DNA of 64,000 nt from Candidatus Gugararchaeum adminiculabundum (GTDB taxonomy: Archaea > Micrarchaeota > Micrarchaeia > Burarchaeales > Gugararchaeaceae). The translations under genes and the position numbers were made by a program. This document shows, one piece after another, positions 35,464-61,045 of this stretch. Below the pieces are notes generated by a model. It ran no database searches. It was not told the DNA's origin and saw only the letters and a program-made list of their open reading frames with translations. Every line of letters begins with the position of its first letter. Within the stretch, counting starts at the first letter, position 1. Location of the stretch: positions 79,429 to 143,428 of the forward strand of contig CABMDC010000001.1 in the NCBI GenBank assembly GCA_902384795.1. Reading direction: 5' to 3'.

Positions 35464-35527
35464 GGGCTATTCTTTGCGCCGACAACTATTTTTAACTAAC
35501 CCCGCGGATTGGAGGCAGGCAATGAGC

Positions 35528-39102: not shown

Positions 39103-39121
39103 CATTATTAGGTTGGTTGAA

Positions 39122-40357: not shown

Positions 40358-40428
40358 TTTGAATAAAATAAAACGAAGTGAAATAAAATGGAAAAAGTAA
40401 GAAAACGGAAAAGATAAAGTGAAATGAA
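40358..40428 (+). repeat. Purine-only spacer between paralogs 3 and 4
   Basis: gaataaaataaaacgaagtgaaataaaatggaaaaagtaagaaaacggaaaagataaagtgaaatgaaatgg. A/G-only with ATG-initiated K/R-rich mini-ORFs. Confidence 0.6.
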
Positions 40429-41721
40429 ATGGAAGAAAAAATAGAAAACAAAAAAACAAACGCGCGCGCAAGGATTCCCGAGCTCGTGCTTCTTTCGCTA
40501 TTGGTGATCGCATCCTTCTACGTTCCGTTCGCGCTCGCGCTTCCGGCAATTCCCACCGCTTCTCTCCAAATAGTCCCCTCCGGAACAATAACCGCGCTGC
40601 CCGAGGACACAACCTCTGTTCCAAAAACCGATTTGGGAAGCGGGTTCGGCCAGGCGCTCAGCTGCGACGCTTCCTCCATTTTCAGCTTCAGCTGGCTTCC
40701 CATGGCGCTGGTGGCAATACTTGCGGTCATACTGATGCTCGCGCTGGCCTACATGATGTCCGTGATTTTCGCGCTCCAGCCCCTGGCGGTGTGGGCAAAG
40801 AACGAGGCAAGCCAAATCGCGGTCACAACCCTGCTAATCATACTGCTTCTCCCCTCAACGCAAGTTTTCTCCAATCTCGGTTGCGCCATACACAAGGAAA
40901 ACACCTTTGACCGCGCCATCGGCTATGTGAAATCAGTGAGGATGAAACTGCTGGTCGATTTCGGGGCCCTCACATCGCTCAATGTTTTCATAGGCCTGAT
41001 CTCCTCGGTGCAGATCAACCTCACCCCGCTGCGTATGGGCGTGTTCTTCAGCTTCGGCTCTGCGTTCAAGCCGATACTTGACTGGATCGGAATCGGCTCC
41101 CAGGCGATGCTTCTGGGAATAGGCGAAATGACCGTGCACGAGCTCGCGCTCTATTTCGTGCGCGACCAGATGTTCGCGCTCTTCCTGCCCCTGGGAATTT
41201 TCCTGCGCAGCACGCCTTTCACGCGCAGGACAGGCAGCGCGCTCATTGCCATTGCCATCGGGCTTTACTTCGTTCTCCCAATCACGCTCCTGGTGAACCA
41301 GGTCATCTACGACGACCACTATGGAAGATATGCGGATGATTTCGCGGCCTATGCCAAGGCCTATGGGCTCGGGGACGTCTGCGCTCCCACCCAGACCTCA
41401 TCCCTGGCCGCCCCCTGCCTTTCGCGCAGCATCGCATCCCCTATTTTGATTTACGTCCATAATTTCATGACGCACTTCGGGCTTCTCACAATCATGGGCC
41501 TAGCCTTCGGCGTGCTCGCCCAGGCGGCCACTGCCCCGCTCATAGTCGCCGGCATGGTCACGCTGGTGTTCTCGGTTGCCAATGATTTGATTTTCATGCT
41601 GGTGATATTCTGCATACTGCTGCCGATCATAAACATCACGCTCACGCTTTCATTCATAGCATCGCTTGCCAAGGCGCTGGACAGCGACATAAATCTGAGC
41701 GCGCTGACAAAATTGATTTGA
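40429..41721 (+). CDS. Polytopic membrane protein, paralog 4 of 6 (extra N-terminal signal/TM segment)
   Basis: YMMSVIFALQPLAVWAKNE. FLPLGIFLRSTPFTRRTGSALIAIAIGLYFVLP. C-terminal DINLSALTKLI. Confidence 0.8.
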   Translation: MEEKIENKKTNARARIPELVLLSLLVIASFYVPFALALPAIPTASLQIVPSGTITALPEDTTSVPKTDLGSGFGQALSCDASSIFSFSWLPMALVAILAVILMLALAYMMSVIFALQPLAVWAKNEASQIAVTTLLIILLLPSTQVFSNLGCAIHKENTFDRAIGYVKSVRMKLLVDFGALTSLNVFIGLISSVQINLTPLRMGVFFSFGSAFKPILDWIGIGSQAMLLGIGEMTVHELALYFVRDQMFALFLPLGIFLRSTPFTRRTGSALIAIAIGLYFVLPITLLVNQVIYDDHYGRYADDFAAYAKAYGLGDVCAPTQTSSLAAPCLSRSIASPILIYVHNFMTHFGLLTIMGLAFGVLAQAATAPLIVAGMVTLVFSVANDLIFMLVIFCILLPIINITLTLSFIASLAKALDSDINLSALTKLI

Positions 41722-41840
41722 AAAATAAAAATGGAAAGAATGGAAATGAAAAAATGGAAGAAAAAAAGAAAATAAAAAGAAAATGAAAAACAGAAAATAG
41801 AATTTAAATGAAAAAATGAAAATAAGAAGAGGAATAGATT
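41722..41840 (+). repeat. Purine-only spacer between paralogs 4 and 5
   Basis: 119 nt of A/G with repeated (a)atggaa / atgaaaa units. Contains the mini-ORF MERMEMKKWKKKRK. Confidence 0.6.
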
Positions 41841-43208
41841 ATGATTGAAATATTGGCTCTGCAAGGAATACAAAAATTCACGACCCTCCTAGACGCACTC
41901 CCGCTTCCAGGCCAGTTCCTTCCCACTAGCAATGCACCGGATCTCGCCTGCACGCTTGCGAAGCCGGTTGCAACCGCCTGGGATTCCGTGAGCCAGGGCA
42001 TCCCCTGCATGTGCCACTCCTCCTGGGTCAGCAATTCGTGGCAGGTAAACTGGTTCGCCTGGCAGGGCATAGGCCTCCTGGCGATCATGATCGGCGCGTT
42101 CCTAATTGCGGTCGTTTACATGCTAAGCGAAATCCTCGGGGGCATGAACCTCCTTGCCTGGCACAGGATGGAAGTAACCCCTCCGCCATCGGGCAATGCC
42201 GGAATGAAGGCCTGGGCAAAAAATGAGATGTTCCAGGTTTTCACCACTGCGATAATCTTCCTCAGCATAGTGGGGCTTGTGAATTTCGCCTGCGCAGTGA
42301 ACACCACTTCCATCTTCTTTTCAGGATACAAATATACCGCGCTGGATACGAACAATAACATAGTCCAGGTGCCCCCCTACCAGAACATGTTTGACGAGGC
42401 GATCCGCTACCTGGATTCGCTCTCCTTTTACTCGGGCTTTGCATTCCTCTATTCGTTTTTCAGCAATCTGGGAATCTCGTTCGTCCAGGGCTTCATCTGG
42501 ACAAGCAGGCCCGGAGGACTTGGCGTGATGGCCCAGCCCCTGGCAGGCCTTTCGCCGCTCATGAGTTCCTCGGGAATGGTGATGTCCACAACCATGATCG
42601 CCTTCCTGACCGCGGCAGTGCAAGTCCAGGTTCTCAGGTTTGTGCAGGCCACCATGCTCAGCGTTTTCCTTCCCATCGGTCTTCTCTGCCGGTGCATCGA
42701 GCCCCTGCGCGGGTTTGGCGGAATGCTCATCGGCCTTGCGCTGGTGATGTTCATCCTCTATCCTGCGCTGCTGGTGATGAACGAGGCGGTTGTCGCGCCA
42801 TCGCTTGCCTCCTACCAGTGGAGCGCGAATTTCTATTTCGAAAAAACAATCCCGGCCGAACCAGACCCAAACGACCCCACCAAGGAGATCCCGACCACCA
42901 TGTACGGAGTTGGCGGATTCGCCAACAAGTTTGCAGCCTCTGACCCTAACGACCCGAACAGCGGGGCAAGTTTCTTCTCAAGCCCTACGGCCTACTCCGC
43001 CAGCGCGCTTCCGAAAACAATGTTTGACAAACTGGTCTCCCCATTCAGCTACCTATACTCGGCAATAATCCGCCTTGTTGCGGTAATTTTCGTAGGAGTC
43101 TTCGCGCTCACGGCCCTGAATTTCGTGATACTCACCGCAGCCGTGCGCGAGCTTACAAAGCTTCTCGGAGAAGAAGCCGACATAACCAACCTGACAAGGA
43201 TGATATGA
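41841..43208 (+). CDS. Polytopic membrane protein, paralog 5 of 6 (extra Cys-containing N-terminal domain)
   Basis: YMLSEILGG...KAWAKNEM. FLPIGLLCRCIEPLRGFGGMLIGLALVMFILYP. C-terminal EADITNLTRMI. Confidence 0.8.
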   Translation: MIEILALQGIQKFTTLLDALPLPGQFLPTSNAPDLACTLAKPVATAWDSVSQGIPCMCHSSWVSNSWQVNWFAWQGIGLLAIMIGAFLIAVVYMLSEILGGMNLLAWHRMEVTPPPSGNAGMKAWAKNEMFQVFTTAIIFLSIVGLVNFACAVNTTSIFFSGYKYTALDTNNNIVQVPPYQNMFDEAIRYLDSLSFYSGFAFLYSFFSNLGISFVQGFIWTSRPGGLGVMAQPLAGLSPLMSSSGMVMSTTMIAFLTAAVQVQVLRFVQATMLSVFLPIGLLCRCIEPLRGFGGMLIGLALVMFILYPALLVMNEAVVAPSLASYQWSANFYFEKTIPAEPDPNDPTKEIPTTMYGVGGFANKFAASDPNDPNSGASFFSSPTAYSASALPKTMFDKLVSPFSYLYSAIIRLVAVIFVGVFALTALNFVILTAAVRELTKLLGEEADITNLTRMI

Positions 43209-44341
43209 TGCCCATGAATCTGATTCCATCTGCCATTGGCGGAATTCCCGCGCTGCTCCAGGGCGCCTCATTCATCGAGACCGGGCAGCCGGTGCAGGGC
43301 GGATTCCGCGACGTGTGGACAGGAAGCCTGGCCGGCGGCCAGAGCTGGGAATGGTACGCATTGGCGGCAATCATGCTCACATTTTTCGCAGCCCTGCTCA
43401 TGTACATGTTCTCCATCATCATGCAGTCGGACAGCATGAAGAAATGGGCGCAGAGGAATTTCATCGAAGTGCTCGCCTCGGTCCTCATAGTGGTTCTTCT
43501 CATGGGAATCGTTTCCGGAGTAATTGCCAGCGTCGGGGTACTTACCGAGACCATGGCGCACGACTACCATTTCGACCTGACCGTGATCGCCATGGGGAAA
43601 AATCCGCAAAGCCCGTTCGACCTGACCTACGCGTTCCTTTCAAAGCAGATAGGGTGCGAGAAGAAATACTTCATGTATTCCTACTGGGCGAACTATGCGG
43701 TCGAGTTCGTTGAGAAATCCACCATCGGCACCGTCTGGGGAGAGCCGATTTCCGGCTGGCCGCTCGCCCCGAGCACAAACCTGTTCCATTCCATCAACCA
43801 TTCCATCTCCTACCTGCTGATTGGGCAGTACCTCATGTGGCACCTGCTCTGGTTCTGCGAGCACACCATGTTCGTGTTCTTCCTCCCGCTCGGAATAGTC
43901 CTCAGGACCTTCCCGCTCACGCGCGGGGTCGGCGCATTTCTCATGGCGCTTGCCATCGGCATGTTCCTTATTCTTCCGCTCACTTTCTCCCTGCAGATCG
44001 TGCTCTATACTAGGGGGCTTCCGCAGACCGCGAGCAGCACGAGTTCTGTGACCGGCTGCGCGATCCAGCCGGTTTCCGCGGACATGAGCGCCCTGGTGCA
44101 GGAGCAGTGCAACAACGGGGAGGCAAGCACCGTGGGCGCGCAGGTTTACGAATACCTGAAAAACAGGGACAAGTCCATCGGCATGGGCGAGCGCCTGAAA
44201 GCCGAATTGACTATGCTCACATTCATCCCCTTCTGGTTCGCGCTCGCGGCGGTAATGACCCTGACCGCGGTGCGCGCCATGGCGCAGCTTTTCGGGACAG
44301 ACACGCAGGAGCTGGGCAGGGGAATGTTCAAATTGCTGTAG
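43205..44341 (+). CDS. Polytopic membrane protein, paralog 6 of 6
   Basis: YMFSIIMQSDSMKKWAQRNF. FLPLGIVLRTFPLTRGVGAFLMALAIGMFLILP. Overlaps paralog 5 by 4 nt (ATGA), indicating translational coupling. Confidence 0.8.
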   Translation: MMPMNLIPSAIGGIPALLQGASFIETGQPVQGGFRDVWTGSLAGGQSWEWYALAAIMLTFFAALLMYMFSIIMQSDSMKKWAQRNFIEVLASVLIVVLLMGIVSGVIASVGVLTETMAHDYHFDLTVIAMGKNPQSPFDLTYAFLSKQIGCEKKYFMYSYWANYAVEFVEKSTIGTVWGEPISGWPLAPSTNLFHSINHSISYLLIGQYLMWHLLWFCEHTMFVFFLPLGIVLRTFPLTRGVGAFLMALAIGMFLILPLTFSLQIVLYTRGLPQTASSTSSVTGCAIQPVSADMSALVQEQCNNGEASTVGAQVYEYLKNRDKSIGMGERLKAELTMLTFIPFWFALAAVMTLTAVRAMAQLFGTDTQELGRGMFKLL

Positions 44342-48130: not shown

Positions 48131-51100
48131 ATGAAGCGTGCGGGAGTCAGGTTTGAGCTAATATTAGCATCATTGCTCATTCTCATTTCAGCGGTTTTCG
48201 TCTACGCGCAAAGCGCTCCCTCGCCCGGCTCGCTCACTATCACTGACTTTGACGGAAATGCGGTCGCTTTCCAGGCGCAGTTTTTCCTGCCAGGCACCCA
48301 GGTGCAGAAATCCCCGAACGACGGCGGAGCCTATGATGTGCAGATCACGGTGAACAATTTCCCTGCAACCATTCACCTCAACCGCACAATCTATTCCGGC
48401 CAGACCCTAATCAAAGTTTCCCAGCCCGCTCCAACAAACCCGCCAGCCCGCTACACCCTTTCCAGCTCGCTCCGCGTAGTCGTCCAATCCGATTCCTCGT
48501 TTGAAACAATCGAAGTGCGCAAGCCGGCTTCTTCCCCTGTGATTTTCGAATGCAATAATTTCAATGAAAACAAGAACGAATGCCCCTCCTGGTCCCGCGC
48601 CAAGGCGCTGAACCCAAAAATCGGGGACGAATACCGCTATTCAACGCGCACTTCGCAAATAGTCCTTGCAGAAGGGACGCTTGACCCGAATGCAAAAACG
48701 CTCACAGGAAAAGTGAAGGTGCGCGACCGGGCGGGCACTGAAATAATCCTGGGCCAGGCGGAGCTTTTCGAGCCGGGCACCACGCTCGCCGCTGAATCCG
48801 ATTCCCAGGTCGCGGACGCGAACGTGAACATTTACGGAAAAAAAGTAAGGAGCATAAGATTCCACGGCCTTGACCTGAACCGGACAACCATCGACCTGAG
48901 CGTTGATAATGCGCCCAATGCAATAATAAACGGAAAAACATACCTCAAGTCGTTTTCCATTGACACGACCGGATTGAATTTCACCTCGGCCACTGTCACC
49001 TATGACAGCACAGGCGGCCCGCTTTACAAATGCAAGGATTGGAATTTCGCCACTTCCAAATGCCTGGGCGAATGGGTTACGGTGCCCACGGCCTCGTCTG
49101 ATATCCTTGGTTACATGACCTTTGAAATATTCCCCGGCGACCCGCTCTACACCCAGGGCTATACCTACAACTTCACGTTGAACTATTCCTCGGTGACTTC
49201 CTCCACCTGGACCAATGCGGCCTATGTCAATGCCAGCGACACGGGCTATGCGACCTGCACCGCAAAGACAAAGCGAATGATACTCGCGCTAACTCCCCTT
49301 ACCGTAGGGGGAACCGGCGATCGAATTACCAGCGTGGTAATGGCAACCCGGTGGAAAGCAAGCTCCACCGATGCCACGGACGGTATAACATTGACTCCCT
49401 ATTTCAGCGGAGTTGCCGGCACCGCATCAAGCTACTTCGGCTGCTCGACCACCGAAGCATACAAGCAATTCGACATCACCTCCCAAAAATCACCCTGGAC
49501 CTGGGCCGATGTAAACTCACTCTCCTATGCAGTTGACTCGGTTGCCTCGGGAAGCTATGGCTGCGGCACCATAAGCGACAACTACATTTACATAAATGTC
49601 TCATTTGTCCCGGACGCCACAGGGCCGACAGTCCAGCTCACCTCTCCTGCGAACATCACCATATACTCCGGAGGGTCTGTCAATTTCACCTACAATGTGA
49701 CCGATGCCTCGACCATTGCCAACTGCACCCTATGGGTCGACAATGTGGCGGTGATCAACGACACCACCTCCACCTTCACCATGAACACCACATTGAATTT
49801 CACCTACACTCCCACGGGCACATCAACACACACCTGGAATATCCAGTGCACCGACACCTCGTTCAACAAGAATGTTGCAAATGCCACGAGGAATTACACC
49901 CTTATTCCAGACACCACTGCGCCGGTTGTCACGCTCCTAGGCCCCGCCACTTCCGCTTCCTATAACGCCTCCAATGTCACGTTCTATTATAGCGTGACAG
50001 ACCTTTCGGGCATTCAAACATGCTCCCTGTTTTTGCAGGGAAACGCGGTTTTGAACAGGTCGATGTTAATCACCAACCAGTCCTCCACTAACTTCACGCA
50101 ATACAACCTGCCGGTCGGCACCTACAATTGGAGCGTCAAGTGCACTGACAATTCGACATTCCAGACAAACAGCGCGACCGCAGCAAACAATTCCATCACC
50201 ATCACTACTTCCACTGCATCGCTAACCGTGTCCGACAATGAAATGGACAACGAGTCAATGGGCATTCCTCCTGGCTATTCGGCAGTAAACGGAATCGGTT
50301 CCAGCACTGACGCCTTTTTCTTCGCAAACTACACCGATGCCGGAGGCAATGAAATCCCCCCGAAGTGGCACGATTCAGTGTTTAGCATGGCTTACACCAC
50401 CCTGGGGAACATAACCATGATGCGCAACCCGAACGAACTGCTCTGGGTCACGGCACCAGGTGCTGCTACCATAACATCTATTAAGGCAGACCTGCGTCAC
50501 ACCGGAGTGAAATCCGATGTAATCGTAGTGGTGATGAGCCTAGGTCTATACGCCTATGACCAGTTCGGGAATCTTCTGTGGACCTTTCCAATTGCAACTA
50601 CAAACACCAACTCCCCCCTGGCAATAGGCGACTTTGACAAGGACGGATATGAGGACGATACCATTTTCAGTGACGGCATGTATGTCTATATATTCAATGA
50701 GAGCGGCGACGTGCTCGCAAACTCCTCATTGTTTTACGGCCATCATTCCATAGCATCAGTGGCTGTAGCAGACTTTGACGGGGACGGCTACAGGGCAGAG
50801 GCAGCAGTGGCGGCCTATTCCAACGACACTAGCGGTGCAAATCCGGACGTGGTCGCTTTCATGAACGGTTCGCTCGGAAATTACCAGAACTTCACTTTTG
50901 CCTCGCTTGCCCGCGGCCTTGGGACTCCGCGCCACAATTACTTGGCACTAGGCGACTTTGACAGCGACGGATATGAGGATGATTTGGCCGTTGCGACCTA
51001 TTCCACCAGCACCTATGCCATCAAGAATGACTCAACGCTCATCTGGAACTATACTACGCCAGCAAACCAGAATTCCACGCGCGTGGCTGCTATAGACTAC

Positions 51101-53884
51101 TCCCGCTCCGGGATTAAAAACGGGGTCGTGGCAGTTCAGTATTTCAATACCACCATAGGCTACATCGCTGTTCTTAATTCCAGCGGCCAGGCTTCTTGCA
51201 TTATAAATACAACCACCTGGGATTCATCTCCAAACGATATCGTAGCAACGGACTTTGACTCCAGCGGTTATCAGGATGATTTCTACGCTTCTATCTACGC
51301 CAAAAACGTGTCTGCCTACAACAGCTCCTGCGGTCCAATTTGGAATTATCCCGCAGGCAGCACGGTAGCATACTACTACCTGGCCATTGGCAATCTGGAT
51401 GAGAACGGTTATGTCCAGGATGACGTCCTGTCTTCTGGTACCTTGGCATCGAGTATTGTCGCATTGACTGCGCTTAAAAATGACGGCACCTATCTCTGGA
51501 ACTTCACGCAAGCATCCATTATCGGGGATGTTGCAGTGGGCAACTTTGAAAACTCCTACCGCGGCTGTACCATTTACTTCGCTGACCGAAAAACTCCAGA
51601 GCAGATGAGCTACAACTCTACTGGCAAATATTACTATTACGAGCGCCGCTTCTATTCCAACGGCACCAAGACCTACAACATCGACTGCCAGGGAAGGGAT
51701 TATGATACGAAAAATGCGAGCGGCACAACCTATGTCGGCCCGCCAGCTGCCCTGACAATTGCGAACCTGAGCATTTACACCGGCACCGAGTTCAGCACAC
51801 TCGGCTCAGGCACCCAGGTCTGCAGCATCACCTCATCTTTCGGAGATAACATTTCCACAGGCTCCTGCGCGAATAATTTAATGCAGGGCACACGCTACCG
51901 CGCGGAAATTCTCGTATGCAATGACGGCGGGTACAACGCAAGCAATGCGCGTTTCAACACGCTGAAGTTCAGCAACCTTTCCACCAGCATGATAAGCACG
52001 CTGGGAACCGGCTGTGGCTATGGCGATTATGGCGGGGCAATCACAGCAATTTCCAGCGGCTGCTCCTATTCCAGCGGAACGCTGACCATCACTTCCAATT
52101 ACGGGGTCAGCCTTCCAACCGGCACCGCGCGCTCCACAACCAATTGCAAAACATTCGCATTCAATTTCACGGCAGGCACGCCAAGCGCAGCATATATTCA
52201 CAACACATCGCTCAGCATTACCGGAGCCGATTTCGGAGTAAACCCAGACACCAACACAATAACAGTGAACACCAGCTCGCCTCCTGCGCTCCACGTTGCG
52301 CAGCTGCGCATTTTCCAGAGCTCTGATTTCAGCACGCTCGGCTCGGGCACTACCAAATGCAACGTGAAATCGCTTTGCAGCAATGTGGCCGGAATGGACG
52401 ATTTCCTGGGAACCACAATCGACATTGGTTACTGGGCTTCATCTGCTGCTGCGGATCTGCCCATAACCCAGAACAACAGAATAGTGATGAACGGCACATC
52501 CACTTCCGCCGACCCGCAGATGTCAAGTTTATTTTCCACCACGTTCCTCCCCTACAATGTAACGGCTGACATGGCAATTGACGGGACCACCTTTGACATC
52601 ACTGCCCCAAGCCCATCCCCGGTTGCCCTCGGGTTCCTGTCAATTGACGACCAGTCTTCAGCCACGCATTTCTACGCGCAGCTTGCCATCTCTCCAGCGG
52701 ATAACGCCGGCACCAAATCAGCGGTAGTCATCGCTCTCTTTTCAAACGAGAGCGGGGAATCCCCTGAAGGGCCAGTTATTCTCGGCACTGTCGGGCTGAA
52801 CGAAACCCTAACCGGCTATATACTATATAACTATACGAACAAGAGCGTGATAGTCGGATACAACGGGACCTCCTCCGGCTCCACCCAGTTTACTGGAATG
52901 GATTTCACTCCCGCAAGCACCGTCAATCTGCTGGGAGTGCTGAATGCGCAGGGCGGGTCCATAAATTTCACGGCCGACAATTTCATTGCATTTACAAATT
53001 CCACCTGGGGCACGTGCGGAAACATTACCACCGCGAATTGCGCGGGGCAGCTCTCATCGAATTCCAACTACCGCACGGAAATAAGATTATGCAATGATGT
53101 TGATGCAAACGGCAACACCAACGCCACTTTCACGACCCTGAAGCACAGCAACCTCACGGACAATTTAATATACGGGATCGGAACCGGCTGCGGCTATGGG
53201 GACACATCCATTTCCGCGCTCGGAGGCGGCTGCGCCTATTCGACAGGGACAGTGACCCTCACCGACAACAATGCGCTCGGCATCCCGCCAGCGGATACGC
53301 GCTCGGACTCCAATTGCGAATGGTTCGCGTACAATTTCACAACCGGCGCGCCAACAAATGATTACATCCACAATTCGTCCATCAGCACTACGGGCGTGAA
53401 TCTCGGCACCAATCCGGACACCAACACGATACAGATAAATCTCACCGGGCTCGTGGCAATAAGCTTCACGGTTTCCTATCCATCCTCAGGCTGCTCCAAT
53501 GGCAAGGGCTGCGCAACAGGCGGATGCAGCGCGTGCACAAGATGCTGGTTCGAAACCACTGACCTCACCGGCCTCGCGACCGAATCAAACGTGAATTGCG
53601 AAGGCCAGAGTTCAGGCACCGCTTTCTTCAGGTTCACGAACACCGGCAGCTCAACTTTGAAATGGCAGGTGAAGCTTGAAAGCGCGCTCCCGGCAACTTT
53701 CGCCTACAAGATGGCGAATGACACCCCGGCCCCTGCCTATGCGCAAACAATCGGCACAAGTTTCGCCACCATAAAAAGCGGCATAGCCGCTTCGGCCTAT
53801 GCCGATGCCTGGGCCTACGGGGATTTCAACACTGCTCCGGGAGGCTCGGCCTCAAGCACACTGACTGTAAATGGAACTACCTGA
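48131..53884 (+). CDS. Giant secreted surface protein (1917 aa) with an FG-GAP/integrin-alpha-like repeat region and an internal roughly 165-aa duplication. Heavily sequon-rich (N-x-S/T).
   Basis: N-terminal signal peptide. Five D-F-D-x-D-G-Y-x-D-D calcium-binding-like repeats between about 50630 and 51425. Duplicated Cys-containing modules at about 51765-52280 and 52980-53450. Dozens of N-x-S/T sites. No C-terminal TM. TATA taatatag at 48101-48108, so probably leaderless. Confidence 0.85.
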   Translation: MKRAGVRFELILASLLILISAVFVYAQSAPSPGSLTITDFDGNAVAFQAQFFLPGTQVQKSPNDGGAYDVQITVNNFPATIHLNRTIYSGQTLIKVSQPAPTNPPARYTLSSSLRVVVQSDSSFETIEVRKPASSPVIFECNNFNENKNECPSWSRAKALNPKIGDEYRYSTRTSQIVLAEGTLDPNAKTLTGKVKVRDRAGTEIILGQAELFEPGTTLAAESDSQVADANVNIYGKKVRSIRFHGLDLNRTTIDLSVDNAPNAIINGKTYLKSFSIDTTGLNFTSATVTYDSTGGPLYKCKDWNFATSKCLGEWVTVPTASSDILGYMTFEIFPGDPLYTQGYTYNFTLNYSSVTSSTWTNAAYVNASDTGYATCTAKTKRMILALTPLTVGGTGDRITSVVMATRWKASSTDATDGITLTPYFSGVAGTASSYFGCSTTEAYKQFDITSQKSPWTWADVNSLSYAVDSVASGSYGCGTISDNYIYINVSFVPDATGPTVQLTSPANITIYSGGSVNFTYNVTDASTIANCTLWVDNVAVINDTTSTFTMNTTLNFTYTPTGTSTHTWNIQCTDTSFNKNVANATRNYTLIPDTTAPVVTLLGPATSASYNASNVTFYYSVTDLSGIQTCSLFLQGNAVLNRSMLITNQSSTNFTQYNLPVGTYNWSVKCTDNSTFQTNSATAANNSITITTSTASLTVSDNEMDNESMGIPPGYSAVNGIGSSTDAFFFANYTDAGGNEIPPKWHDSVFSMAYTTLGNITMMRNPNELLWVTAPGAATITSIKADLRHTGVKSDVIVVVMSLGLYAYDQFGNLLWTFPIATTNTNSPLAIGDFDKDGYEDDTIFSDGMYVYIFNESGDVLANSSLFYGHHSIASVAVADFDGDGYRAEAAVAAYSNDTSGANPDVVAFMNGSLGNYQNFTFASLARGLGTPRHNYLALGDFDSDGYEDDLAVATYSTSTYAIKNDSTLIWNYTTPANQNSTRVAAIDYSRSGIKNGVVAVQYFNTTIGYIAVLNSSGQASCIINTTTWDSSPNDIVATDFDSSGYQDDFYASIYAKNVSAYNSSCGPIWNYPAGSTVAYYYLAIGNLDENGYVQDDVLSSGTLASSIVALTALKNDGTYLWNFTQASIIGDVAVGNFENSYRGCTIYFADRKTPEQMSYNSTGKYYYYERRFYSNGTKTYNIDCQGRDYDTKNASGTTYVGPPAALTIANLSIYTGTEFSTLGSGTQVCSITSSFGDNISTGSCANNLMQGTRYRAEILVCNDGGYNASNARFNTLKFSNLSTSMISTLGTGCGYGDYGGAITAISSGCSYSSGTLTITSNYGVSLPTGTARSTTNCKTFAFNFTAGTPSAAYIHNTSLSITGADFGVNPDTNTITVNTSSPPALHVAQLRIFQSSDFSTLGSGTTKCNVKSLCSNVAGMDDFLGTTIDIGYWASSAAADLPITQNNRIVMNGTSTSADPQMSSLFSTTFLPYNVTADMAIDGTTFDITAPSPSPVALGFLSIDDQSSATHFYAQLAISPADNAGTKSAVVIALFSNESGESPEGPVILGTVGLNETLTGYILYNYTNKSVIVGYNGTSSGSTQFTGMDFTPASTVNLLGVLNAQGGSINFTADNFIAFTNSTWGTCGNITTANCAGQLSSNSNYRTEIRLCNDVDANGNTNATFTTLKHSNLTDNLIYGIGTGCGYGDTSISALGGGCAYSTGTVTLTDNNALGIPPADTRSDSNCEWFAYNFTTGAPTNDYIHNSSISTTGVNLGTNPDTNTIQINLTGLVAISFTVSYPSSGCSNGKGCATGGCSACTRCWFETTDLTGLATESNVNCEGQSSGTAFFRFTNTGSSTLKWQVKLESALPATFAYKMANDTPAPAYAQTIGTSFATIKSGIAASAYADAWAYGDFNTAPGGSASSTLTVNGTT

Positions 53885-53981
53885 TGCAGCAGATTCATAT
53901 TTTTCCAGTTGTTTATTCCTTCTTGGAATTTTTCGAAACCTATTTATACCCCGCCCTACAATCTTTAGTTAATAATCTGAG

Positions 53982-54545
53982 GTGATTTGTTTGAATAAAA
54001 TGCCGTTTTTAGCACTATTCATGGTGACCATGTTCGTGGGGTTCGCTTTTGCCGACACCATCTCCACAACAGTTCACTTTAACGTGCAGACCCAAACTTC
54101 GTTCACTGTGACGCTTCCGGGCGGGAGTGCCGTTGCCTCTGGCACAACTTCAGACATTGAATTCAACTCAACATCAGGCACCCAGGTCAAGGTGAATGCA
54201 AGCGTTGTGGGCGCACCTTCAAACGTGCAGACCAGCTCCATCCCGATATTCGTTTACTCGAACACCGGAAACGTGGACATCAATGTCAATCTTACACTTG
54301 ATTCCACCTACACTGGAATCACGGTAAAGGCGGCAAATGCCAATGCTGACTGGGAATCAAGCTGTTCCTCCACTGCAATGCCCGATTCGGGCAAGTGCGT
54401 GGCTGTTTCAACTGCCTCACGGAGAGTTGCAGGCACTTTGGCAGCAGGCGGGACCCAGAATGTTTGGATGTGGGCTGACTTCTCATCCGTTGCAGGAGGG
54501 ACTTCGGTTTCGAAAACACTGACGCATACCAGTGCTGCAAGTTAA
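53982..54545 (+). CDS. Secreted Thr/Ser-rich beta-rich protein (187 aa)
   Basis: Signal peptide MPFLALFMVTMFVGFAFA, then alternating beta-strand-like segments with N-x-S/T sequons. Start is ambiguous among GTG 53982, TTG 53991 and ATG 54000. Confidence 0.6.
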   Translation: MICLNKMPFLALFMVTMFVGFAFADTISTTVHFNVQTQTSFTVTLPGGSAVASGTTSDIEFNSTSGTQVKVNASVVGAPSNVQTSSIPIFVYSNTGNVDINVNLTLDSTYTGITVKAANANADWESSCSSTAMPDSGKCVAVSTASRRVAGTLAAGGTQNVWMWADFSSVAGGTSVSKTLTHTSAAS

Positions 54546-54563
54546 AATTAATGGGGCTGATTT

Positions 54564-55493
54564 ATGATGAAAAATACAAAAATTTTGTTTGGATTGCTTG
54601 TGGCGCTGATGCTTTTGTTCGGCTGCACAGGCGGAGCGGGCGAGCAGCCTGCGGCTGGGACTGGCAATAATACGGTAGCTCCGGTGAAAAATGACACCGT
54701 GGCCCCAGAACCCACGGCATTGGAAAAAAGGATTGCCGAAGACCTGGCTGTTGCAGAGAAACTGAAAACAAGGCCTGACTATGGATTTGGAATCACGGGC
54801 GCATCAGTCCTGTTCCAGAAGCTTCCGGCATTTCCAACGGACTTTTACAAAATGAGGGTCCAGGTGAGATACAACCGGATAACCGACCTCACTAATTTGG
54901 ATGCGAAATACTACAAGCAGCCCGAGTTCTACCCCGGATTTGACGACGGCTTCCAGGCTGCGGGACAGGGCGCAAAGCTCTATGCAGCACCTCCTGAAGG
55001 AAGGTGGGGAGCATTCGGCTATGGCACCTACCCTGCCGATGCACAGGTGACAACCGCAGCGGGACAGGAATTCAAGCTGACGACTTTCTTCCACACTGGC
55101 TGGCTTGTCGAATCCTACCAGGGAACAAGGCTGACCGCATCCTACCCTGAAACGGCCTCACTCCCAAACCAGGAAATGACCGGCGCAAACAGCATGGTGC
55201 AGGACCCGGTGAAAACCGCCGGATACTTCGATGTAACGGTGACTCCGAACGTATTCCTGCTTGATCCCGCATTCCCGCAATTCGGCGAGAACTGGGCGCA
55301 GAAAGTGATTGTTGACGTTAAGGTAAAGGAAGGCACGCCCAAGGGAGTTTATGTGATCGGAATCAACCCGAGCGCGCCGCCTGCAGAACAGAATGATGCC
55401 TGGGCAACTCAATACACCACTGCCTACACAACTGCGGGAGCAGCAACATCGCTTGACAGGCCGTTCTACCAGATTGCGGTAGACGTGAAGTAA
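54564..55493 (+). CDS. Lipoprotein (309 aa), predicted extracellular
   Basis: Signal peptide with lipobox LLFGC. Confidence 0.65.
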   Translation: MMKNTKILFGLLVALMLLFGCTGGAGEQPAAGTGNNTVAPVKNDTVAPEPTALEKRIAEDLAVAEKLKTRPDYGFGITGASVLFQKLPAFPTDFYKMRVQVRYNRITDLTNLDAKYYKQPEFYPGFDDGFQAAGQGAKLYAAPPEGRWGAFGYGTYPADAQVTTAAGQEFKLTTFFHTGWLVESYQGTRLTASYPETASLPNQEMTGANSMVQDPVKTAGYFDVTVTPNVFLLDPAFPQFGENWAQKVIVDVKVKEGTPKGVYVIGINPSAPPAEQNDAWATQYTTAYTTAGAATSLDRPFYQIAVDVK

Positions 55494-55496
55494 GCG

Positions 55497-57299
55497 TTGA
55501 TTAGCGTGCAAACGCGCAAACTTCTTTTCTTTTCTTTTTTCTTTCTATTTTTCCTAGCCCAATTTTCATCAACCGAATCAGTTTCAACTCAGACCTATTT
55601 CCGCTCCGTTGACCTCCACCCGCGCATTTCAATCATCGCTTTCACCGTAATCCCTTCCAGCATTAACAAGGGCGGCAGCGGAGACCTGGCAGTGACCTTC
55701 AGGAACACGGGAGGCTCGGTTGCCGCCGCAACCGCAACAGCGCAGATTTTTGACGGCTCGGGCAATCTTCTGCAGACACTGGAATTCTCGGAAATAGAAG
55801 TTCCTCCCGGCCCATCCATAGTGGCAATGAAATCATTTTCTGTAGGCAGTTCGCCTGTGGGCATTTACCGCGTGTTTGTGAACGCAACCTATGGCGAGGA
55901 AAACATTACCAACACCCCGGACACTTCATTTACAGTGGTCACCCCTGTTTCAGAAATAGTGCCCCCTGAATCCACCACCGGCCTTCCAACTCCCATCGTC
56001 CCGCCCGGCTCGCTTCCGCCTGCAATCACTCCCATCAAGGGTGACATCAGCATGGTGAAAAGCATAGTGCGCAGCGACATTGTGCTGGGCCAGGGAACGG
56101 TTTCCAGCATCTCCATGAAAAACGTGGGCGATTCGGCTGCGAGGATCTCATTTGAAATTTCAGGTATAAGCAGCAGCTGGCTTGTGGAAAAGCCCAAGGA
56201 CACAATTGTCCTTCCGCAGGAAACGCGCGTGGTCAACCTCCCGTTTTCCATTCCGGCGAACGCTCCAACCGGGGATTATCTGGTGAAAATAAAAGTCACC
56301 TCCAAGCCCACAACAACCTCCGTTTCAGGAAGCAATGGAAACGGAGTCAAGGGAAATGGCGGCCCGTCAATTCTTTTGCTTGACAGCGCAGGCGCAGCGC
56401 AGTCCGAAAGCACCGACTACATCCTGCTGCGCGTGAAGAACGCGCCGGCCCCTACTGACAAGCCCTATGTGCTCCGCACCCTGAGCACCGATTCGGTCAC
56501 CGGCAAAACCACGGTCACGCTCATCATCCGAAACCCGTCAGCTTCGGTTTACAAAAACCTGCTCGTTTCAGAATTAATCCCGCGCGAACTCGCCCTGGAC
56601 TCATCAAAAATTTCCTTCAGCGACAAGCAGGGCGTTGTTTCAGACACCGGCAAGGGAGTCGAGGTAAACTGGCTCATTGACCTGAATGCCAACGATGAAT
56701 TGAGAATCACCTACTCCATTTCCAGCGTGCTTTCGGAATATTCGGTCTACTATGACTGGCAGCTGAACACCCTTGCCACGGAACAGAAAACCGCGCTCGA
56801 GGATTTGCTTTCCGTTGTGCAGATTGAGAGCGAGCAAATTTCCGCAGGGGGCGTTGGAAAAATCCATGCAGTGGTCCTTTACACTGGCGACACTCCTGTG
56901 CCCATAACCGCGTTCCTGGAAGTTCCCAGCGGGTTCGGCTCCAAGCCCCAGTCCCTTGTGCGCACGCTCCCCGCGCGCAGCTACAGCGACCTGGATTTTG
57001 AAATCCAGACTCCTGAGAATTCCGGCGGCTCGTCTTCGGTGAACCTGGTAATCCTGAGCGGAAGCACGCAATTGCGCGCAACCACCCCGGTGATAATCTC
57101 CTCCCCGCACCCGGCCACTGGCGGAATCGACATTTCAAAAATCGGAGTGATCATCGCGGCAGTCATCGCTGCCATAGTCCTGTTTTTCGGCCTGAAATTC
57201 GTGCGCTCAAGCCTCGACCGCTCGCGCTACAGCAATGATAGGGTTAAAAATCTCATGCAGTTTAAACGCATGATAGACATTGATACCGAGAAAAAATAG
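55497..57299 (+). CDS. Cell-surface protein with CARDB-like beta-sandwich repeats, a Pro/Thr linker and a C-terminal TM anchor (600 aa)
   Basis: N-terminal signal. Ig-like repeats. PPESTTGLPTPIVPPGSLPP linker. C-terminal TM segment IGVIIAAVIAAIVLFFGLKFV followed by a basic tail. Confidence 0.7.
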   Translation: MISVQTRKLLFFSFFFLFFLAQFSSTESVSTQTYFRSVDLHPRISIIAFTVIPSSINKGGSGDLAVTFRNTGGSVAAATATAQIFDGSGNLLQTLEFSEIEVPPGPSIVAMKSFSVGSSPVGIYRVFVNATYGEENITNTPDTSFTVVTPVSEIVPPESTTGLPTPIVPPGSLPPAITPIKGDISMVKSIVRSDIVLGQGTVSSISMKNVGDSAARISFEISGISSSWLVEKPKDTIVLPQETRVVNLPFSIPANAPTGDYLVKIKVTSKPTTTSVSGSNGNGVKGNGGPSILLLDSAGAAQSESTDYILLRVKNAPAPTDKPYVLRTLSTDSVTGKTTVTLIIRNPSASVYKNLLVSELIPRELALDSSKISFSDKQGVVSDTGKGVEVNWLIDLNANDELRITYSISSVLSEYSVYYDWQLNTLATEQKTALEDLLSVVQIESEQISAGGVGKIHAVVLYTGDTPVPITAFLEVPSGFGSKPQSLVRTLPARSYSDLDFEIQTPENSGGSSSVNLVILSGSTQLRATTPVIISSPHPATGGIDISKIGVIIAAVIAAIVLFFGLKFVRSSLDRSRYSNDRVKNLMQFKRMIDIDTEKK

Positions 57300-57323
57300 C
57301 GAATACTGCGCGGGCGTGTTAAG

Positions 57324-58106
57324 ATGCGTGAAAAGAGGGTTGTCGGAATAGTTTCAGGCAAGGGCGGGGTAGGCAAGAGCACCATTTCCGTGAATCTCAG
57401 CGCCCTGATGAGCGAGCACAATTTGAGCATCCTTCTCATAGACTCGGACATCGGCAACCCCTGCGTGGGCGTGCACCTGGGAATCTGGCAGCACACCGCA
57501 GGCCTGCAGGACGCGCTCGCAGGAAAGGCGAAGCCCGAGCAGCTGATAATCTCACACCCGGCCACGGGCATCCGCGTTCTTCCCGCTTCATTGCAATACA
57601 AGCATGCGAGCATGGATAACCTCAAGGACATAGTTTCCAAAATAGAGGGATTTGAAATCATAGTCATAGATTCGCCGCCCGGGATCACCGAGGAGGTGGA
57701 AGCCATAATCGACGCCTGCACAGACCTGGTGGTTGTCACCACCGCGGACCTGCCCAGCGTTTCCTCGGCCACCAAGATTGTGGAGCTCGCGCGCGGAAAG
57801 AACAAGCATGTAATCGGCATCGCGCTCAACCGCGTGATAAGCAAGAAATACGAGCTTCATCCGCGCGAAATAGAGGCCATGACCGACTGCCGCCTGCTGA
57901 CCATAATCCCCGAGGACCGCGCGGTCCCTGAAAGCATAGGCGCCGGCATCCCCCTGGTCCTCTACCGGAGAAGCAGCGACGCATCCCTGAAAATGGTCGA
58001 GCTGGCGGGCCAGGTTTCAGCCTATTGCGGCATCCGCGAGGGCTATTCCCAGATGGGCATAATCCAGCGCCTGCTCCTCGCCATCCGGAGAATCCTACCG
58101 ATTTAA
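57324..58106 (+). CDS. MinD/ParA-family ATPase
   Basis: Deviant Walker A GKGGVGKST. DSPPG Walker B. 260 aa, typical archaeal MinD-like. Confidence 0.85.
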   Translation: MREKRVVGIVSGKGGVGKSTISVNLSALMSEHNLSILLIDSDIGNPCVGVHLGIWQHTAGLQDALAGKAKPEQLIISHPATGIRVLPASLQYKHASMDNLKDIVSKIEGFEIIVIDSPPGITEEVEAIIDACTDLVVVTTADLPSVSSATKIVELARGKNKHVIGIALNRVISKKYELHPREIEAMTDCRLLTIIPEDRAVPESIGAGIPLVLYRRSSDASLKMVELAGQVSAYCGIREGYSQMGIIQRLLLAIRRILPI

Positions 58107-58138
58107 ATATATCAAGTGCGCAATAGTAGTACTAGTAA

Positions 58139-58516
58139 TTGGAAAGTTGTGGTTTTATGGTTTCGTTCGAGGATGTCAAACTGTATTCCTTTGCAGCGCT
58201 GCTGGCGCTCGAAGCAATGGTGATCACCTGCGCGGCATTCCTGGCAATCCTTTCGCTCACATCCCCGGCTGATTTTGCGTCCGTTTCCTCGTCCCTTAAA
58301 TTCTCGGCCCTGGGAATCCAGCCCTCGGTTTCAGGGCAGGAGGCGCCTCCGGAAACTTTCCTGGCAGAAACCAAAATCATAACCAAGGATCAAAACGGCA
58401 CCGACCAGCTCTCGCTCAGGAACGACATTTACTGCAAAACCGGCCCCTCGGCCTATTCCCTGTGCGGCTACGACTGCCCGAGTGCGGACCTCGCCTCCTG
58501 CTCCGAGAGAAAATAA
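58139..58516 (+). CDS. Small membrane/secreted protein (125 aa) with a Cys-containing C-terminus
   Basis: Hydrophobic N-terminal segment. Weak evidence. Confidence 0.4.
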   Translation: MESCGFMVSFEDVKLYSFAALLALEAMVITCAAFLAILSLTSPADFASVSSSLKFSALGIQPSVSGQEAPPETFLAETKIITKDQNGTDQLSLRNDIYCKTGPSAYSLCGYDCPSADLASCSERK

Positions 58517-58627
58517 GGGGCAAAATAGGCACAATTCTCCATTTTACGCACTAACTCTCAATCAATAACTTTTATATACACCCCCATCATAAATAACACA
58601 GTTCTAAATAATGTTTTACACTGGGAG

Positions 58628-60325
58628 GTGTATCCAATGAAATTTTTTGCAGCCCGAACTCCGAATACTACCAATCAAAATGCCGCAACCGCGCAGCAAA
58701 GGAACAAATTCCTCACCGTAGCATTGCTTAGCGCATCCATTGTTGCAACATCCGCCACCTCCGCCTTTGCAGCAAACGTATACAAGAAGTTCAAGCAGGC
58801 AAAGAACGGGGATGAAATAGTTTTGACTTACAAGGGCGCAAACAACAAAACCCGAACCCGCAGGGGCATCATTGAAAACATGTATGAAAAGAAAGGCAAG
58901 GACGGGAAGCCTTATTTTGGATGCTATCTCACAGTGGCAGAAGGGAAAATCGAAGTGACCGGTTCCAAGATGCAAAACCTCAAGATTATCCCCAATGTAA
59001 TCCCTTCCAAGCCAATATTTGTCAAGCTGCCAGGGGCAAAATCCAAGGACTGCCCCTGCCCGAAATCAAAGGCAAAGCCGAAGCAGGCGCACAAGAAAGT
59101 GCAGCCCAAGGCAAAACCCAAGGAACAACCAAAGCAACTGGCAAAAGCGAAACCAAAAGAGCCGGAAAAAAAGGACAAGCCCAAGGACAAGGAACCCAAG
59201 CTAGGAAAAACATTCGGGCCTGAGCTGCCGAAAGAGCCGGCGCCAGAAGCAAAGCAGAAGCAAAAACCTGCAAAGGAAAAATCAAAAGTTAAACCAGTCG
59301 AAAAACCCCCTGAAGAAGAAAAGGGATTGCCACTAAAACTCTCCCCCGCCCCTGAGGAAGAAAAACAATCAAAGGACAAGCCCAAGGGCAAGGAAAAGAA
59401 AGTGGCGCAAAAACCAACAAAGGAAAAGCCTGCGCACAAAAAAGGCCCGGTTGCCGCAATTGACATACGGGCCGATTCTTCCGAAAGCAACGGCGTTGGC
59501 GGAAGAGTGAACTTCAGCACCAAGAACTTTATCGGCGGACTCTCCGCCAGGGTGGCGCGAAGTTTTGACGTAATGTTCTCGCACCGCGTGCGCAAGACCA
59601 CGGGCACAGGAATAGACGGCGTGAATCCACGTCCGGTTGAAACAGAGGCGGCCGATACCACTATCGGGGGCGTTAGATGGTTCAATGAAAGATTCGCCTG
59701 GCTCAAAGTCGGCCTAAGAGACACCGTGACCACTGTCAGCGGAAAAGGGCGCTCAGAAACAGCGCAATCCACCTATTTCGAAGCAGGCGCGGAAACGCCC
59801 AAGCACAAAGTTAGGGTCAACAACAAGGGTGAAAGTGAAATAGAAATCAGCGGGCAAAGGAAGAGCTACACCGCCGTAGCCGGCGCATCCACCGAGGAAG
59901 ACAAATTCGAGCCGGTAGACCTGGGCAAAAAAGTCAATCCTGACAACGCATCCAAACGCAAGGCGAAATCAAGGTATTTTGGAGTTTCCAAGCGAGTGAC
60001 CAAAAAAACAGAAATCGGCATGAGGGGCGAGCAAGGGGTAGACAAAGTATCCAACTGGCCCAAGACAAAGGAAATAAGGACCAAGACCCGCTCCCTGGTC
60101 GCCACGGTGCGCAGGACCTTTGGAAGAACCACTGTTACGGCCGAAGTCGGCAGGGTCCACGGAGAGGACAGCATTGGCAATGGCCCGGGAGAAAAATTTG
60201 GCTACCAGAAAGCCGGAGTTGGCATAAGCAGGGAAATCGGAAACAAGGGCGCTTCCCTTGAGTTCCAGTACAACAAAAGCGGCCAGGACGAATATATCTA
60301 CGGTGGCGTAAAGTTCGTCAAATAA
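58628..60325 (+). CDS. Secreted protein with a long Lys/Pro-rich (KPK/EPK) spacer and a C-terminal beta-strand-rich domain of about 260 aa (565 aa)
   Basis: Hydrophobic segment LTVALLSASIVATSATSAFA. About 120 aa of KPKxxPK repeats. A C-terminal domain with alternating hydrophobic pattern ending YIYGGVKFVK. Confidence 0.65.
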   Translation: MYPMKFFAARTPNTTNQNAATAQQRNKFLTVALLSASIVATSATSAFAANVYKKFKQAKNGDEIVLTYKGANNKTRTRRGIIENMYEKKGKDGKPYFGCYLTVAEGKIEVTGSKMQNLKIIPNVIPSKPIFVKLPGAKSKDCPCPKSKAKPKQAHKKVQPKAKPKEQPKQLAKAKPKEPEKKDKPKDKEPKLGKTFGPELPKEPAPEAKQKQKPAKEKSKVKPVEKPPEEEKGLPLKLSPAPEEEKQSKDKPKGKEKKVAQKPTKEKPAHKKGPVAAIDIRADSSESNGVGGRVNFSTKNFIGGLSARVARSFDVMFSHRVRKTTGTGIDGVNPRPVETEAADTTIGGVRWFNERFAWLKVGLRDTVTTVSGKGRSETAQSTYFEAGAETPKHKVRVNNKGESEIEISGQRKSYTAVAGASTEEDKFEPVDLGKKVNPDNASKRKAKSRYFGVSKRVTKKTEIGMRGEQGVDKVSNWPKTKEIRTKTRSLVATVRRTFGRTTVTAEVGRVHGEDSIGNGPGEKFGYQKAGVGISREIGNKGASLEFQYNKSGQDEYIYGGVKFVK

Positions 60326-60399
60326 ATCTCCAAACTGGTTGGGCTAGTCAGCTAGCCTTTCTTTTTTCTTTTTCATTTTTTTAGTAAAACGTTCGCGCG

Positions 60400-61045
60400 A
60401 AAACCAGCAACGCAAGCCGCCTTCAGGCGGTGGATGAAGCGCGAACATCTTTTTCTTTTTGAGCCAAATTAGTCTCTAGCGGCGGCGCGGGCGCCTTCGG
60501 CGCCCCATTAGTGTAATCACCGCCACTGGAGATGTAGAATATGTTTAGTGGAAACTTTGCAAATAATAAACATAGCGTTGGAATCAACGCCTTTCACCTT
60601 GAATGGTGCACAAAATACAGGTATAAACTGCTGCATGGAAGCATAGTGAACAGAGTCCTCAGGGAAAGCATCTGTGCGACCAGCCAGCAATACGGGATGC
60701 AAATACTTGCAATGGAGATAGGTTTTGACCACATCCACCTGTTTGTGAGCCTGCCATCAACTATGGCAGTTTCCACCGCCTTGCAACTTTTCAAGGGCAG
60801 AAGCTCAAGGGAAATTTTTGCAGCATGCCGCTCTTTCAGAGGTTTGTACCATAAAGGGCATTTTTGGTCAAGAGGAATTTTCTACCGCTCAGTCAGCAAT
60901 GTTTGTTCCAGTACTGTCTACAACTACATTTCGCAGCACAAAACCAGGGAGCTGCAGAATACAATCTACTCCGCGAAAAGTGAAGCTAGCCAGCTAAGTC
61001 TGTTGAATTTTTTCTAGGCGAAAACCCCCGCCTTTAGGCGGGGGT
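60400..61045 (+). mobile_element. IS200/IS605-family insertion sequence (tnpA only) with subterminal hairpins at both ends
   Basis: Left-end nested palindromes (gttcgcgc...gcgcgaac enclosing gccgcc-ttca-ggcgg, and gggcgcc-ttc-ggcgccc). Right-end hairpin cccccgcc-ttta-ggcggggg at 61025-61044. Encloses the 158-aa HuH transposase gene. About 650 bp, typical IS200 size. Confidence 0.65.
60541..61017 (+). CDS. tnpA: IS200/IS605 transposase TnpA (Y1 HuH)
   Basis: HSVGINAFHLEWCTKYRYKLL (YHxVWxxKYR-like). HuH motif FDHIHLFVSLP. Catalytic Tyr region VYNYISQHK. 158 aa. Confidence 0.8.
   Translation: MFSGNFANNKHSVGINAFHLEWCTKYRYKLLHGSIVNRVLRESICATSQQYGMQILAMEIGFDHIHLFVSLPSTMAVSTALQLFKGRSSREIFAACRSFRGLYHKGHFWSRGIFYRSVSNVCSSTVYNYISQHKTRELQNTIYSAKSEASQLSLLNFF

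Follow-up and report, generated by a model that had tools for sequence, protein, structure and literature searches.

We analysed a 64,000-nucleotide (nt) stretch of contig CABMDC010000001.1 (assembly GCA_902384795.1, positions 79,429 to 143,428 of the forward strand), hereafter called the window, from Candidatus Gugararchaeum adminiculabundum, a metagenome-assembled genome of the Micrarchaeota (DPANN) and the sole member of its order (PMC8561730). The subject is a run of genes for surface proteins at 53982–60325 of the window, among which a gene for a MinD-like ATPase and a gene for a lysine- and proline-rich protein of 565 amino acids (aa) are found. The MinD and the 565-aa protein both have 100% matches to proteins of this organism, and a threonyl-tRNA synthetase gene of archaeal type downstream is in keeping with it. 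Across Micrarchaeota, the MinD gene closes a conserved operon of surface-protein genes; the 565-aa protein is a strict orphan and probably a lineage-specific, secreted, strongly basic protein of the envelope.

A check of the open reading frames (ORFs) of the window recovered all six ORFs of the preliminary description at the same coordinates. All lie on the plus strand, downstream of a giant surface protein of 1917 aa (48131–53884, plus strand) with Pfam matches to Big_7 and FG-GAP. The first four encode a 187-aa secreted protein (53982–54545), a 309-aa lipoprotein (54564–55493), a 600-aa type I membrane protein (55497–57299) and the 260-aa MinD-like ATPase (57324–58106), and they are followed by a 125-aa ORF with a TTG start and one hydrophobic segment (58139–58516) and by the 565-aa ORF (58628–60325). 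The gaps from the 187-aa gene to the 125-aa ORF are 18, 3, 24 and 32 nt in order, and a TATA-box-like sequence, TATTTATA, at 53941–53948 (plus strand) is a candidate promoter of the genes from 187 aa to MinD. These four genes form a tightly packed operon, of which MinD is the terminal gene.

The 125-aa ORF and the 565-aa gene are separated by a larger gap of 111 nt. The 565-aa gene reads as a separate transcription unit, because it has a TATA box of its own (TTTATATA, 58571–58578), a Shine–Dalgarno-like site (GGAGGTG, 58624–58630) and, on its 3' side, a terminator-like hairpin followed by a T-tract (60341–60367), all on the plus strand. In the source record, translation starts at the ATG at 58637, which gives 562 aa rather than 565. 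The six-gene cluster proposed initially thus merges two things, a conserved operon (from the 187-aa gene to MinD, with the giant upstream) and a lineage-specific pair, the 125-aa and 565-aa genes, which lies outside the module. No homologue of the 125-aa ORF was found in any related locus, and it has no family match.

The 187-aa protein has a Sec-type signal peptide, is beta-rich and consists of a single copy of a domain that also forms the last ~150 aa of the giant (53432–53881); its homologues occupy the same position in related loci. The C-terminus of the giant is 35–43% identical to the C-termini of giants in related loci, and the alignment of the small-protein family with the giant C-termini gives an hhalign probability of 99.7% (E 6e-27). 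The motifs FTxTLPG, DIEFN, PIFxFxNTG and WxWxDF are common to members with the shared domain. The C-terminus of the window giant has no transmembrane (TM) segment. For the 187-aa family and the shared domain, no match was obtained in Pfam, NCBIfam, PHROGs or the Protein Data Bank (PDB), including a profile search with the family alignment.

The 309-aa protein has a lipobox, LLFGC, the cysteine of which is kept in five of nine homologues. Its family alignment (A1) has 27 invariant columns, including the motif YWKQPE[WF]YP, and the family has no Pfam model and no PDB match in a profile search with the alignment. Neither the shared ~150-aa domain nor the lipoprotein is covered by a Pfam model, and the module defines a protein family for each.

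The 600-aa protein has a signal peptide, Ig-like (immunoglobulin-like) domains, a TM helix at about residues 545–566 (within a hydrophobic segment at 540–574) and a basic cytoplasmic tail at residues 567–600 (57195–57296). Ig-like domains of the NPCBM_assoc/CARDB type were detected by Pfam in all eight members of the family examined (best E 1.3e-10). The tail carries a motif, [FY]xx[ED]R[LV]xY[LAM][KR]x[IL][KR], which recurs with substitutions in 20 homologues, the ectodomains of which are just 25–32% identical to that of the window protein. The secreted beta-rich protein, the lipoprotein and the CARDB-like TM-anchored protein of the preliminary description are each borne out by these features.

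The MinD-like ATPase has the deviant Walker A motif SGKGGVGKS at residues 11–19 together with DSPPG. In an alignment (A4) of 16 MinD sequences, namely 13 orthologues and three more distant paralogues, SGKGGVGK[ST] and DSPPG are invariant. The C-terminus of the window protein ends with an amphipathic basic helix, GIIQRLLLAIRRILPI (58056–58103), which is predicted to be of the MinD membrane-binding type; the orthologues have similar ends. Pfam matches are to ParA, CbiA and AAA_31, and the best family match is to the archaeal MinD family TIGR01969 minD_arch (E 3.8e-47, 160.6 bits). On the family matches, this alignment and the synteny given below, the protein is a MinD-like ATPase; with a score below the curated cutoff of TIGR01969, it belongs to a distinct subfamily closest to archaeal MinD. 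A bacterial tyrosine kinase (BY-kinase) was also considered for this protein and was rejected in view of the C-terminal amphipathic helix, the absence of a C-terminal tyrosine cluster and the far stronger MinD matches.

The orthologues of this MinD are proteins of ~260 aa with 38–52% identity and at least 206 bits, and the source-named matches are all labelled Micrarchaeota. When related loci (denoted below by L numbers) were collected with MinD as the starting point, all eight distinct loci proved by BLAST to have homologues of the 187-, 309- and 600-aa proteins on the upstream side of MinD. In seven of the eight, the three genes stand immediately upstream of MinD in the order of the window; in L002, a 502-aa ORF is interposed between the 600-aa homologue and MinD. 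In L003 and L009, the stop codon of the 600-aa homologue and the start codon of MinD overlap. A variable giant of 690 to more than 2900 aa, with beta-helix, CBM96 or Laminin_G-type domains, usually precedes the module, although no giant protein was called in L009. The genes 3' of MinD vary from locus to locus and include a metallo-beta-lactamase-fold protein, SpoIIM, a second MinD with HIT, and ribosomal protein L15e.

A second collection, which started from the lipoprotein and scanned the 309-aa family across the species representatives of GTDB, gave 24 loci. Of these, 15 are titled as Micrarchaeota lineages, including Burarchaeum (the sister order) and Norongarragalinales, seven as ‘uncultured archaeon’ (among them LFW-281_7, the type metagenome-assembled genome of Burarchaeum australiense), one as Iainarchaeum and one as ‘Thaumarchaeota’. 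The lipoprotein, the 600-aa protein and MinD are colinear and on the same strand in 14 of the 24 loci, with MinD identities of 38–55%, and a 187-aa homologue is detectable in 13 of these 14. In eight loci, a lipoprotein paralogue alone is present, without the 600-aa protein, and in none of them does an orthologous MinD stand beside it. It is thus the 600-aa membrane protein in particular that MinD accompanies. MinD proteins at a greater distance (33–36% identity) occur without the module.

In total, about 20 Micrarchaeota loci share the order of the module, with MinD identity down to 38%, and the strictly colinear core is formed by the last four genes (187 aa, 309 aa, 600 aa and MinD). The link between MinD and the surface genes is thus real at the level of genes and is part of a phylum-wide module; we found no description of it in the literature searched. 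The preliminary description had connected the ATPase with the surface genes, and this connection holds: in the relatives, MinD keeps its surface-gene neighbours rather than standing beside unrelated genes. The wording that MinD is embedded among surface genes needs correction, as MinD adjoins them and closes the operon.

Several related loci show additions to the module. In L001 and L002, a second lipoprotein paralogue lies upstream of the module at 3659–4639, and directly 3' of the module MinD, at 10881–11660, stands another MinD paralogue with 43% identity to that of the window; this suggests duplication and specialisation of parts of the module. In one clade only, a highly conserved 53-aa protein without a signal peptide (beginning MRQIAIVLETAR) is encoded between the 180-aa and lipoprotein genes (7013–7174 in L003, 7012–7173 in L007 and 6994–7155 in L008), and the lipoprotein of the same clade bears an insertion of ~47 aa. 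A gene for a KaiC-like ATPase stands immediately upstream of the module in L009.

Genes of ParA/MinD proteins typically adjoin those of their cargo, and the partners are engaged through short charged peptides (PMC10241942). The proteins bind a matrix, which for the MinD type is the membrane, through a C-terminal targeting helix (PMC10241942). In Haloferax volcanii, MinD homologues place archaella and chemosensory arrays (PMC11588486). Because ParA/MinD genes adjoin their cargo, partner peptides are short and charged, and archaeal MinD proteins place surface machines, we propose that the MinD of the module acts on the tail of the 600-aa protein. ATP-bound MinD dimers would sit on the membrane and bind the conserved tail, which on sequence grounds is the candidate partner, and MinD would thereby cluster, place or partition the surface complex; one possible location is the site of contact with a host or substrate.

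On the outer side, the giant, which has no membrane anchor of its own, would be held on the cell by docking of its shared C-terminal domain on a membrane-anchored base. This base would be the 600-aa protein, with or without the lipoprotein, and the small 187-aa protein would be a domain-only subunit of the same assembly. The docking step is drawn by analogy with the WxL clusters of Firmicutes, in which a small WxL-only protein and a large protein with a C-terminal WxL domain are encoded with a TM-anchored Ig-like protein, WxLIP (PMC10599100).

The WxL/WxLIP (Csc) clusters follow the same gene logic as the module, and one of the eight members of the 600-aa family matches WxLIP_HBD (2.4e-05), the others matching NPCBM_assoc or CARDB. 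The differences are considerable. The shared domain cannot be recognised as a WxL domain (none of 14 members has a Pfam WxL match at E up to 1), the module of the archaea has a lipoprotein and MinD in addition, and its anchor protein is about twice as long. To our knowledge, Archaea have no peptidoglycan to which a WxL-like domain could bind. We therefore regard the relation of the module to WxL clusters as one of analogy, not membership.

With the known ParA/MinD systems (MinD–MinE, FlhG, TadZ/CpaE, and MinD4 and MinD2 of Haloferax volcanii), the module MinD shares the signature lysine of the deviant Walker A motif, Walker B and the C-terminal amphipathic helix, as well as the placing of the gene beside the presumed cargo; its candidate partner is likewise a short basic peptide, which is conserved in the protein encoded next to it. 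It differs from them in its presumed cargo, an adhesin-type complex outside the cell that would be reached through the C-terminal cytoplasmic tail of a membrane protein with one TM helix, and in the lack of MinC- or MinE-like genes in the module locus. Giant surface proteins of DPANN archaea, such as SPEARE of Nanohaloarchaeum, are likewise very large, variable, secreted, multi-domain proteins presumed to serve in attachment; the giant of the module differs in that its C-terminal domain is shared with a small neighbour and in that it belongs to a fixed operon with MinD.

Engagement of the tail by MinD, with positioning of the adhesin complex as its result, is in our view the most likely mechanism, and the place of MinD as the last gene of a conserved operon suggests it. 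Positioning of an extracellular complex by way of a cytoplasmic tail on a single-pass membrane protein is nevertheless put forward tentatively, and we give it somewhat less than even weight. Several points count against it. The score of the window MinD, 160.6 bits, is below the curated TIGR01969 cutoff of 201.75; the candidate tail is C-terminal, whereas the partner peptides described for ParA/MinD proteins are N-terminal; and the shared domain, on which docking would depend, lacks a Pfam WxL match, as mentioned. The MinD of the operon may also be the general MinD of the cell.

According to this last possibility, MinD would serve division or positioning in general, for example by acting on FtsZ or SepF, and its place beside the surface genes would reflect conserved gene order, with no direct physical link. 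Sakai et al. count minD, together with ftsZ and sepF, among the division genes of a Micrarchaeon (PMC8784108), the archaeal MinD family TIGR01969 is the best family match of the window protein, and FtsZ genes occur near the module in one locus (L003), where two of them and SpoIIM lie just 3' of MinD. However, adjacency, orientation and near-zero or overlapping spacing hold down to 38% MinD identity, and MinD follows the 600-aa protein and not the lipoprotein paralogues. The second MinD paralogue in L001 and L002 looks as if the module copy had specialised, and deletion of all four MinD genes in Haloferax volcanii left division unaffected (PMC11588486). We consider a general MinD unlikely for these reasons, although it is the strongest of the competing explanations.

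A weaker alternative is that the module serves a type IV pilus-like (Epd/Tad-like) machine as an accessory part, and that MinD localises this machine as TadZ/CpaE does. A T2SSE ATPase gene and two T2SSF platform genes are indeed found divergent beside the module in L005/L039, L007, L008, L037 and L040, and T2SSE and T2SSF genes lie within 10 kb of it in L001–L003; in addition, the CpaE-like Ssd is among the family matches of MinD. In the window, however, the 48 kb upstream and the 6 kb downstream contain neither T2SSE nor T2SSF, and the flanks of most other loci likewise lack them, the adjacency being limited to one clade of Micrarchaeota. Such clade-specific adjacency rules out a universal accessory of type IV pili, and the reading is improbable in general. 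The 180-aa proteins were also examined as pilins and rejected, as they have ordinary Sec signal peptides and no class III pilin signals.

The second part of the locus is the 565-aa protein. As described initially, it has a signal-like segment, a K/P-rich stretch and a C-terminal domain ending YIYGGVKFVK. On the plus strand, the signal peptide, ending AFA|A, is encoded at 58637–58771, a small SH3-like beta-barrel domain (the N-domain, from a predicted model) at 58772–59002, the K/P/E-rich spacer, delimited by composition, at 59048–59443 and a basic, beta-rich C-terminal domain at 59444–60322. The spacer region (residues 141–272) contains 29.7% K, 17.2% P and 11.7% E and is a region of compositional low complexity, not a tandem repeat at the DNA level. 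The C-terminal domain comprises residues 273–565 (293 aa). The AlphaFold2 model of the N-domain has one helix and five strands with a predicted local distance difference test (pLDDT) value of 62, and Foldseek related it to generic SH3/Sm-like small barrels only, with no match below E 0.001.

The protein has no detectable relatives. Word-indexed searches with the full sequence, among 5.8 billion clustered proteins, and with the C-terminal domain gave at most the protein itself, as did an exhaustive phmmer search of 1.84 billion (1.84e9) representative proteins with the C-terminal domain. Nothing significant was found with phmmer against the PDB, in Pfam (E up to 10, isolated domains), in NCBIfam or in PHROGs; the weak exceptions are one PDB match at chance level (E 0.29) and, for the N-domain, two Pfam hits below threshold. 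A homologue or a K/P-rich analogue is absent from all related loci examined, Burarchaeum included. Foreign origin of the gene was considered and rejected, its codon usage being broadly native, and neither internal repeats in the C-terminal domain nor similarity to the neighbouring proteins was found.

From composition, the most likely role of this protein would be that of a soluble or extended tether or spacer between the membrane and the S-layer, or of a binder of acidic surfaces. Two other roles, prompted by the preliminary description, have to be weighed.

Taken further, the resemblance to TonB/TolA-type spacers would make the protein an energy-transducing or envelope-spanning strut with an uncleaved N-terminal anchor. 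This likeness is compositional only, in that the ~130-aa K/P/E-rich spacer resembles that of TonB; as there, the spacer is flanked by a hydrophobic segment on the N-terminal side and by a domain on the C-terminal side. Fully extended, it would measure ~40 nm (an estimate from a generic rise of ~0.3 nm per residue), more than the gap of 20–25 nm between the single membrane and the S-layer of Ca. Micrarchaeum harzensis (bioRxiv 10.1101/2021.04.28.441871). Other features speak against a TonB/TolA-like strut: a TonB_C or TolA domain was not detected by Pfam, there are no ExbBD- or TolQR-like genes among the neighbours checked, the hydrophobic segment is weak (Kyte–Doolittle value 1.65) and ends AFA|A like a cleaved signal peptide, and an extra folded, SH3-like N-domain stands between it and the spacer. 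We regard a role of this kind as having a slim chance.

According to the other suggestion, that of the preliminary description, the C-terminal ~290 aa are a porin-like beta-barrel set in the lipid of an outer-membrane-like layer. We compared the domain with seven E. coli barrels (OmpA, OmpX, OmpF, OmpW, OmpT, Tsx and FimD) and about 20 soluble beta-rich proteins, some of them from the window. Like the barrels, the domain is rich in Gly and Thr and poor in Leu; it is also rich in Ser and free of Cys, and its YIYGGVKFVK end loosely recalls the C-termini of outer membrane proteins. The alternating beta periodicity proposed for it was also found, as the period-2 hydrophobic moment is above that of shuffled sequences (z = 2.2). 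The effect is modest, and it does not separate barrels from soluble beta proteins, because the ranges of the two (0.6–3.1 and 1.9–4.9, respectively) overlap.

The remaining statistics are not those of a porin. Stretches of nine residues with a fully apolar alternate face number two in 293 aa (0.7 per 100 aa, versus 1.5–4.1 in the barrels), while each control barrel has at least five such apolar-faced strands. Aromatic residues make up 7.8% of the domain and charged residues 29%, compared with 11–19% and 16–23%, respectively, in the control barrels. The last residue is Lys (...KFVK), while Phe ends six of the seven barrels. The mean hydropathy of 0.422 is below the boundary of 0.434 that divides folded from unfolded proteins in the charge–hydropathy plot. 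No outer membrane protein family matched the domain even at Pfam E 10, nor was there such a match in NCBIfam or with phmmer against the PDB, and phmmer found no homologue in any organism. Absence of the protein from all related Micrarchaeota loci, including those of the sister order, is not what would be expected of a structural outer membrane protein, which should be conserved.

It should be noted that some observations temper this conclusion. The count of apolar-faced strands is a home-made statistic, and since the soluble controls overlap the range of the barrels, only a low score is informative. The single-sequence AlphaFold2 prediction that had been suggested as a check gave a pLDDT of 30.5 and a predicted template modelling score (pTM) of 0.16 for the C-terminal domain, so that neither a barrel nor a sandwich can be read from it. 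Two membranes were once proposed for Micrarchaeota, and the account of the cultured Micrarchaeon ARM-1 by Sakai et al. still has both an inner and an outer membrane (PMC8784108). Ca. Micrarchaeum harzensis, by comparison, has one membrane and an S-layer, not an outer membrane (bioRxiv 10.1101/2021.04.28.441871).

Overall, a barrel is disfavoured by the properties of the sequence, and in the favoured reading the domain would not be embedded in a membrane; an outer-membrane barrel in this organism is very improbable, and equally so is its variant, a new and unusually polar membrane barrel in an outer lipid layer of Gugararchaeales. Such an outer-membrane beta-barrel would, if true, be the first in archaea and would reopen the question of one or two membranes in Micrarchaeota. 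The 565-aa protein cannot settle this question, because it is a singleton with un-porin-like statistics and is absent from relatives.

Within the 565-aa gene, an antisense ORF of 282 aa (58924–59772, minus strand) has an S/F/G/L-rich translation; it was rejected as a gene, being a by-product of the low-complexity K/P-coding region. Apart from the 565-aa gene, K/P-rich sequence was found in the window and the related loci only at 1–531 (plus strand), as a K/P/A/E-rich stretch in an ORF that is cut off by the left edge of the window; the ORF listed there, 79–531, has no Pfam match. An IS200-like Y1 transposase gene (E 4e-27) lies at 60541–61017, between the 565-aa gene and a threonyl-tRNA synthetase gene of archaeal type, and a strong 9-bp GC hairpin follows on its 3' side (61024–61045). 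The lineage-specific 125-aa and 565-aa genes thus adjoin a mobile element.

Elsewhere in the window, six tandem paralogous genes at 36808–44341 (plus strand) encode polytopic membrane proteins of 295–455 aa with ~6 hydrophobic segments each; their pairwise identity is 22–28% over long alignments, they have no Pfam match, and a gene for a 439-aa protein (35462–36781) precedes them. Two adjacent minus-strand genes for DNA methyltransferases (D12-class N6-adenine and N6_N4_Mtase) are found at 28774–32500, next to a gene for a 691-aa protein without a Pfam match, and they lie where the window has its only drop in GC content (0.40 at 30–32 kb); this region is probably a restriction–modification island. 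At 26660–28708 (minus strand), a 431-aa lipoprotein (LLLAGC, seven N-glycosylation sequons, no Pfam match) is encoded directly 3' of a KaiC-like ATPase.

Taken together, our results lean slightly towards a joint explanation of the locus, in which a conserved surface module with its own MinD stands next to a gene for a lineage-specific, secreted basic protein. Attachment to other cells is the usual way of life of DPANN archaea, Micrarchaeota among them. Ca. Gugararchaeum adminiculabundum itself has been proposed to be self-supporting (PMC8561730).

We infer that the module is a system of the ParA/MinD kind, the cargo of which would be of a new type. If this is true, the cargo of ParA/MinD proteins would extend to an extracellular complex reached across the membrane, and a phylum-wide operon that pairs a variable giant adhesin with a docking base and MinD would offer a concrete hypothesis for how Micrarchaeota build and place their attachment surface.

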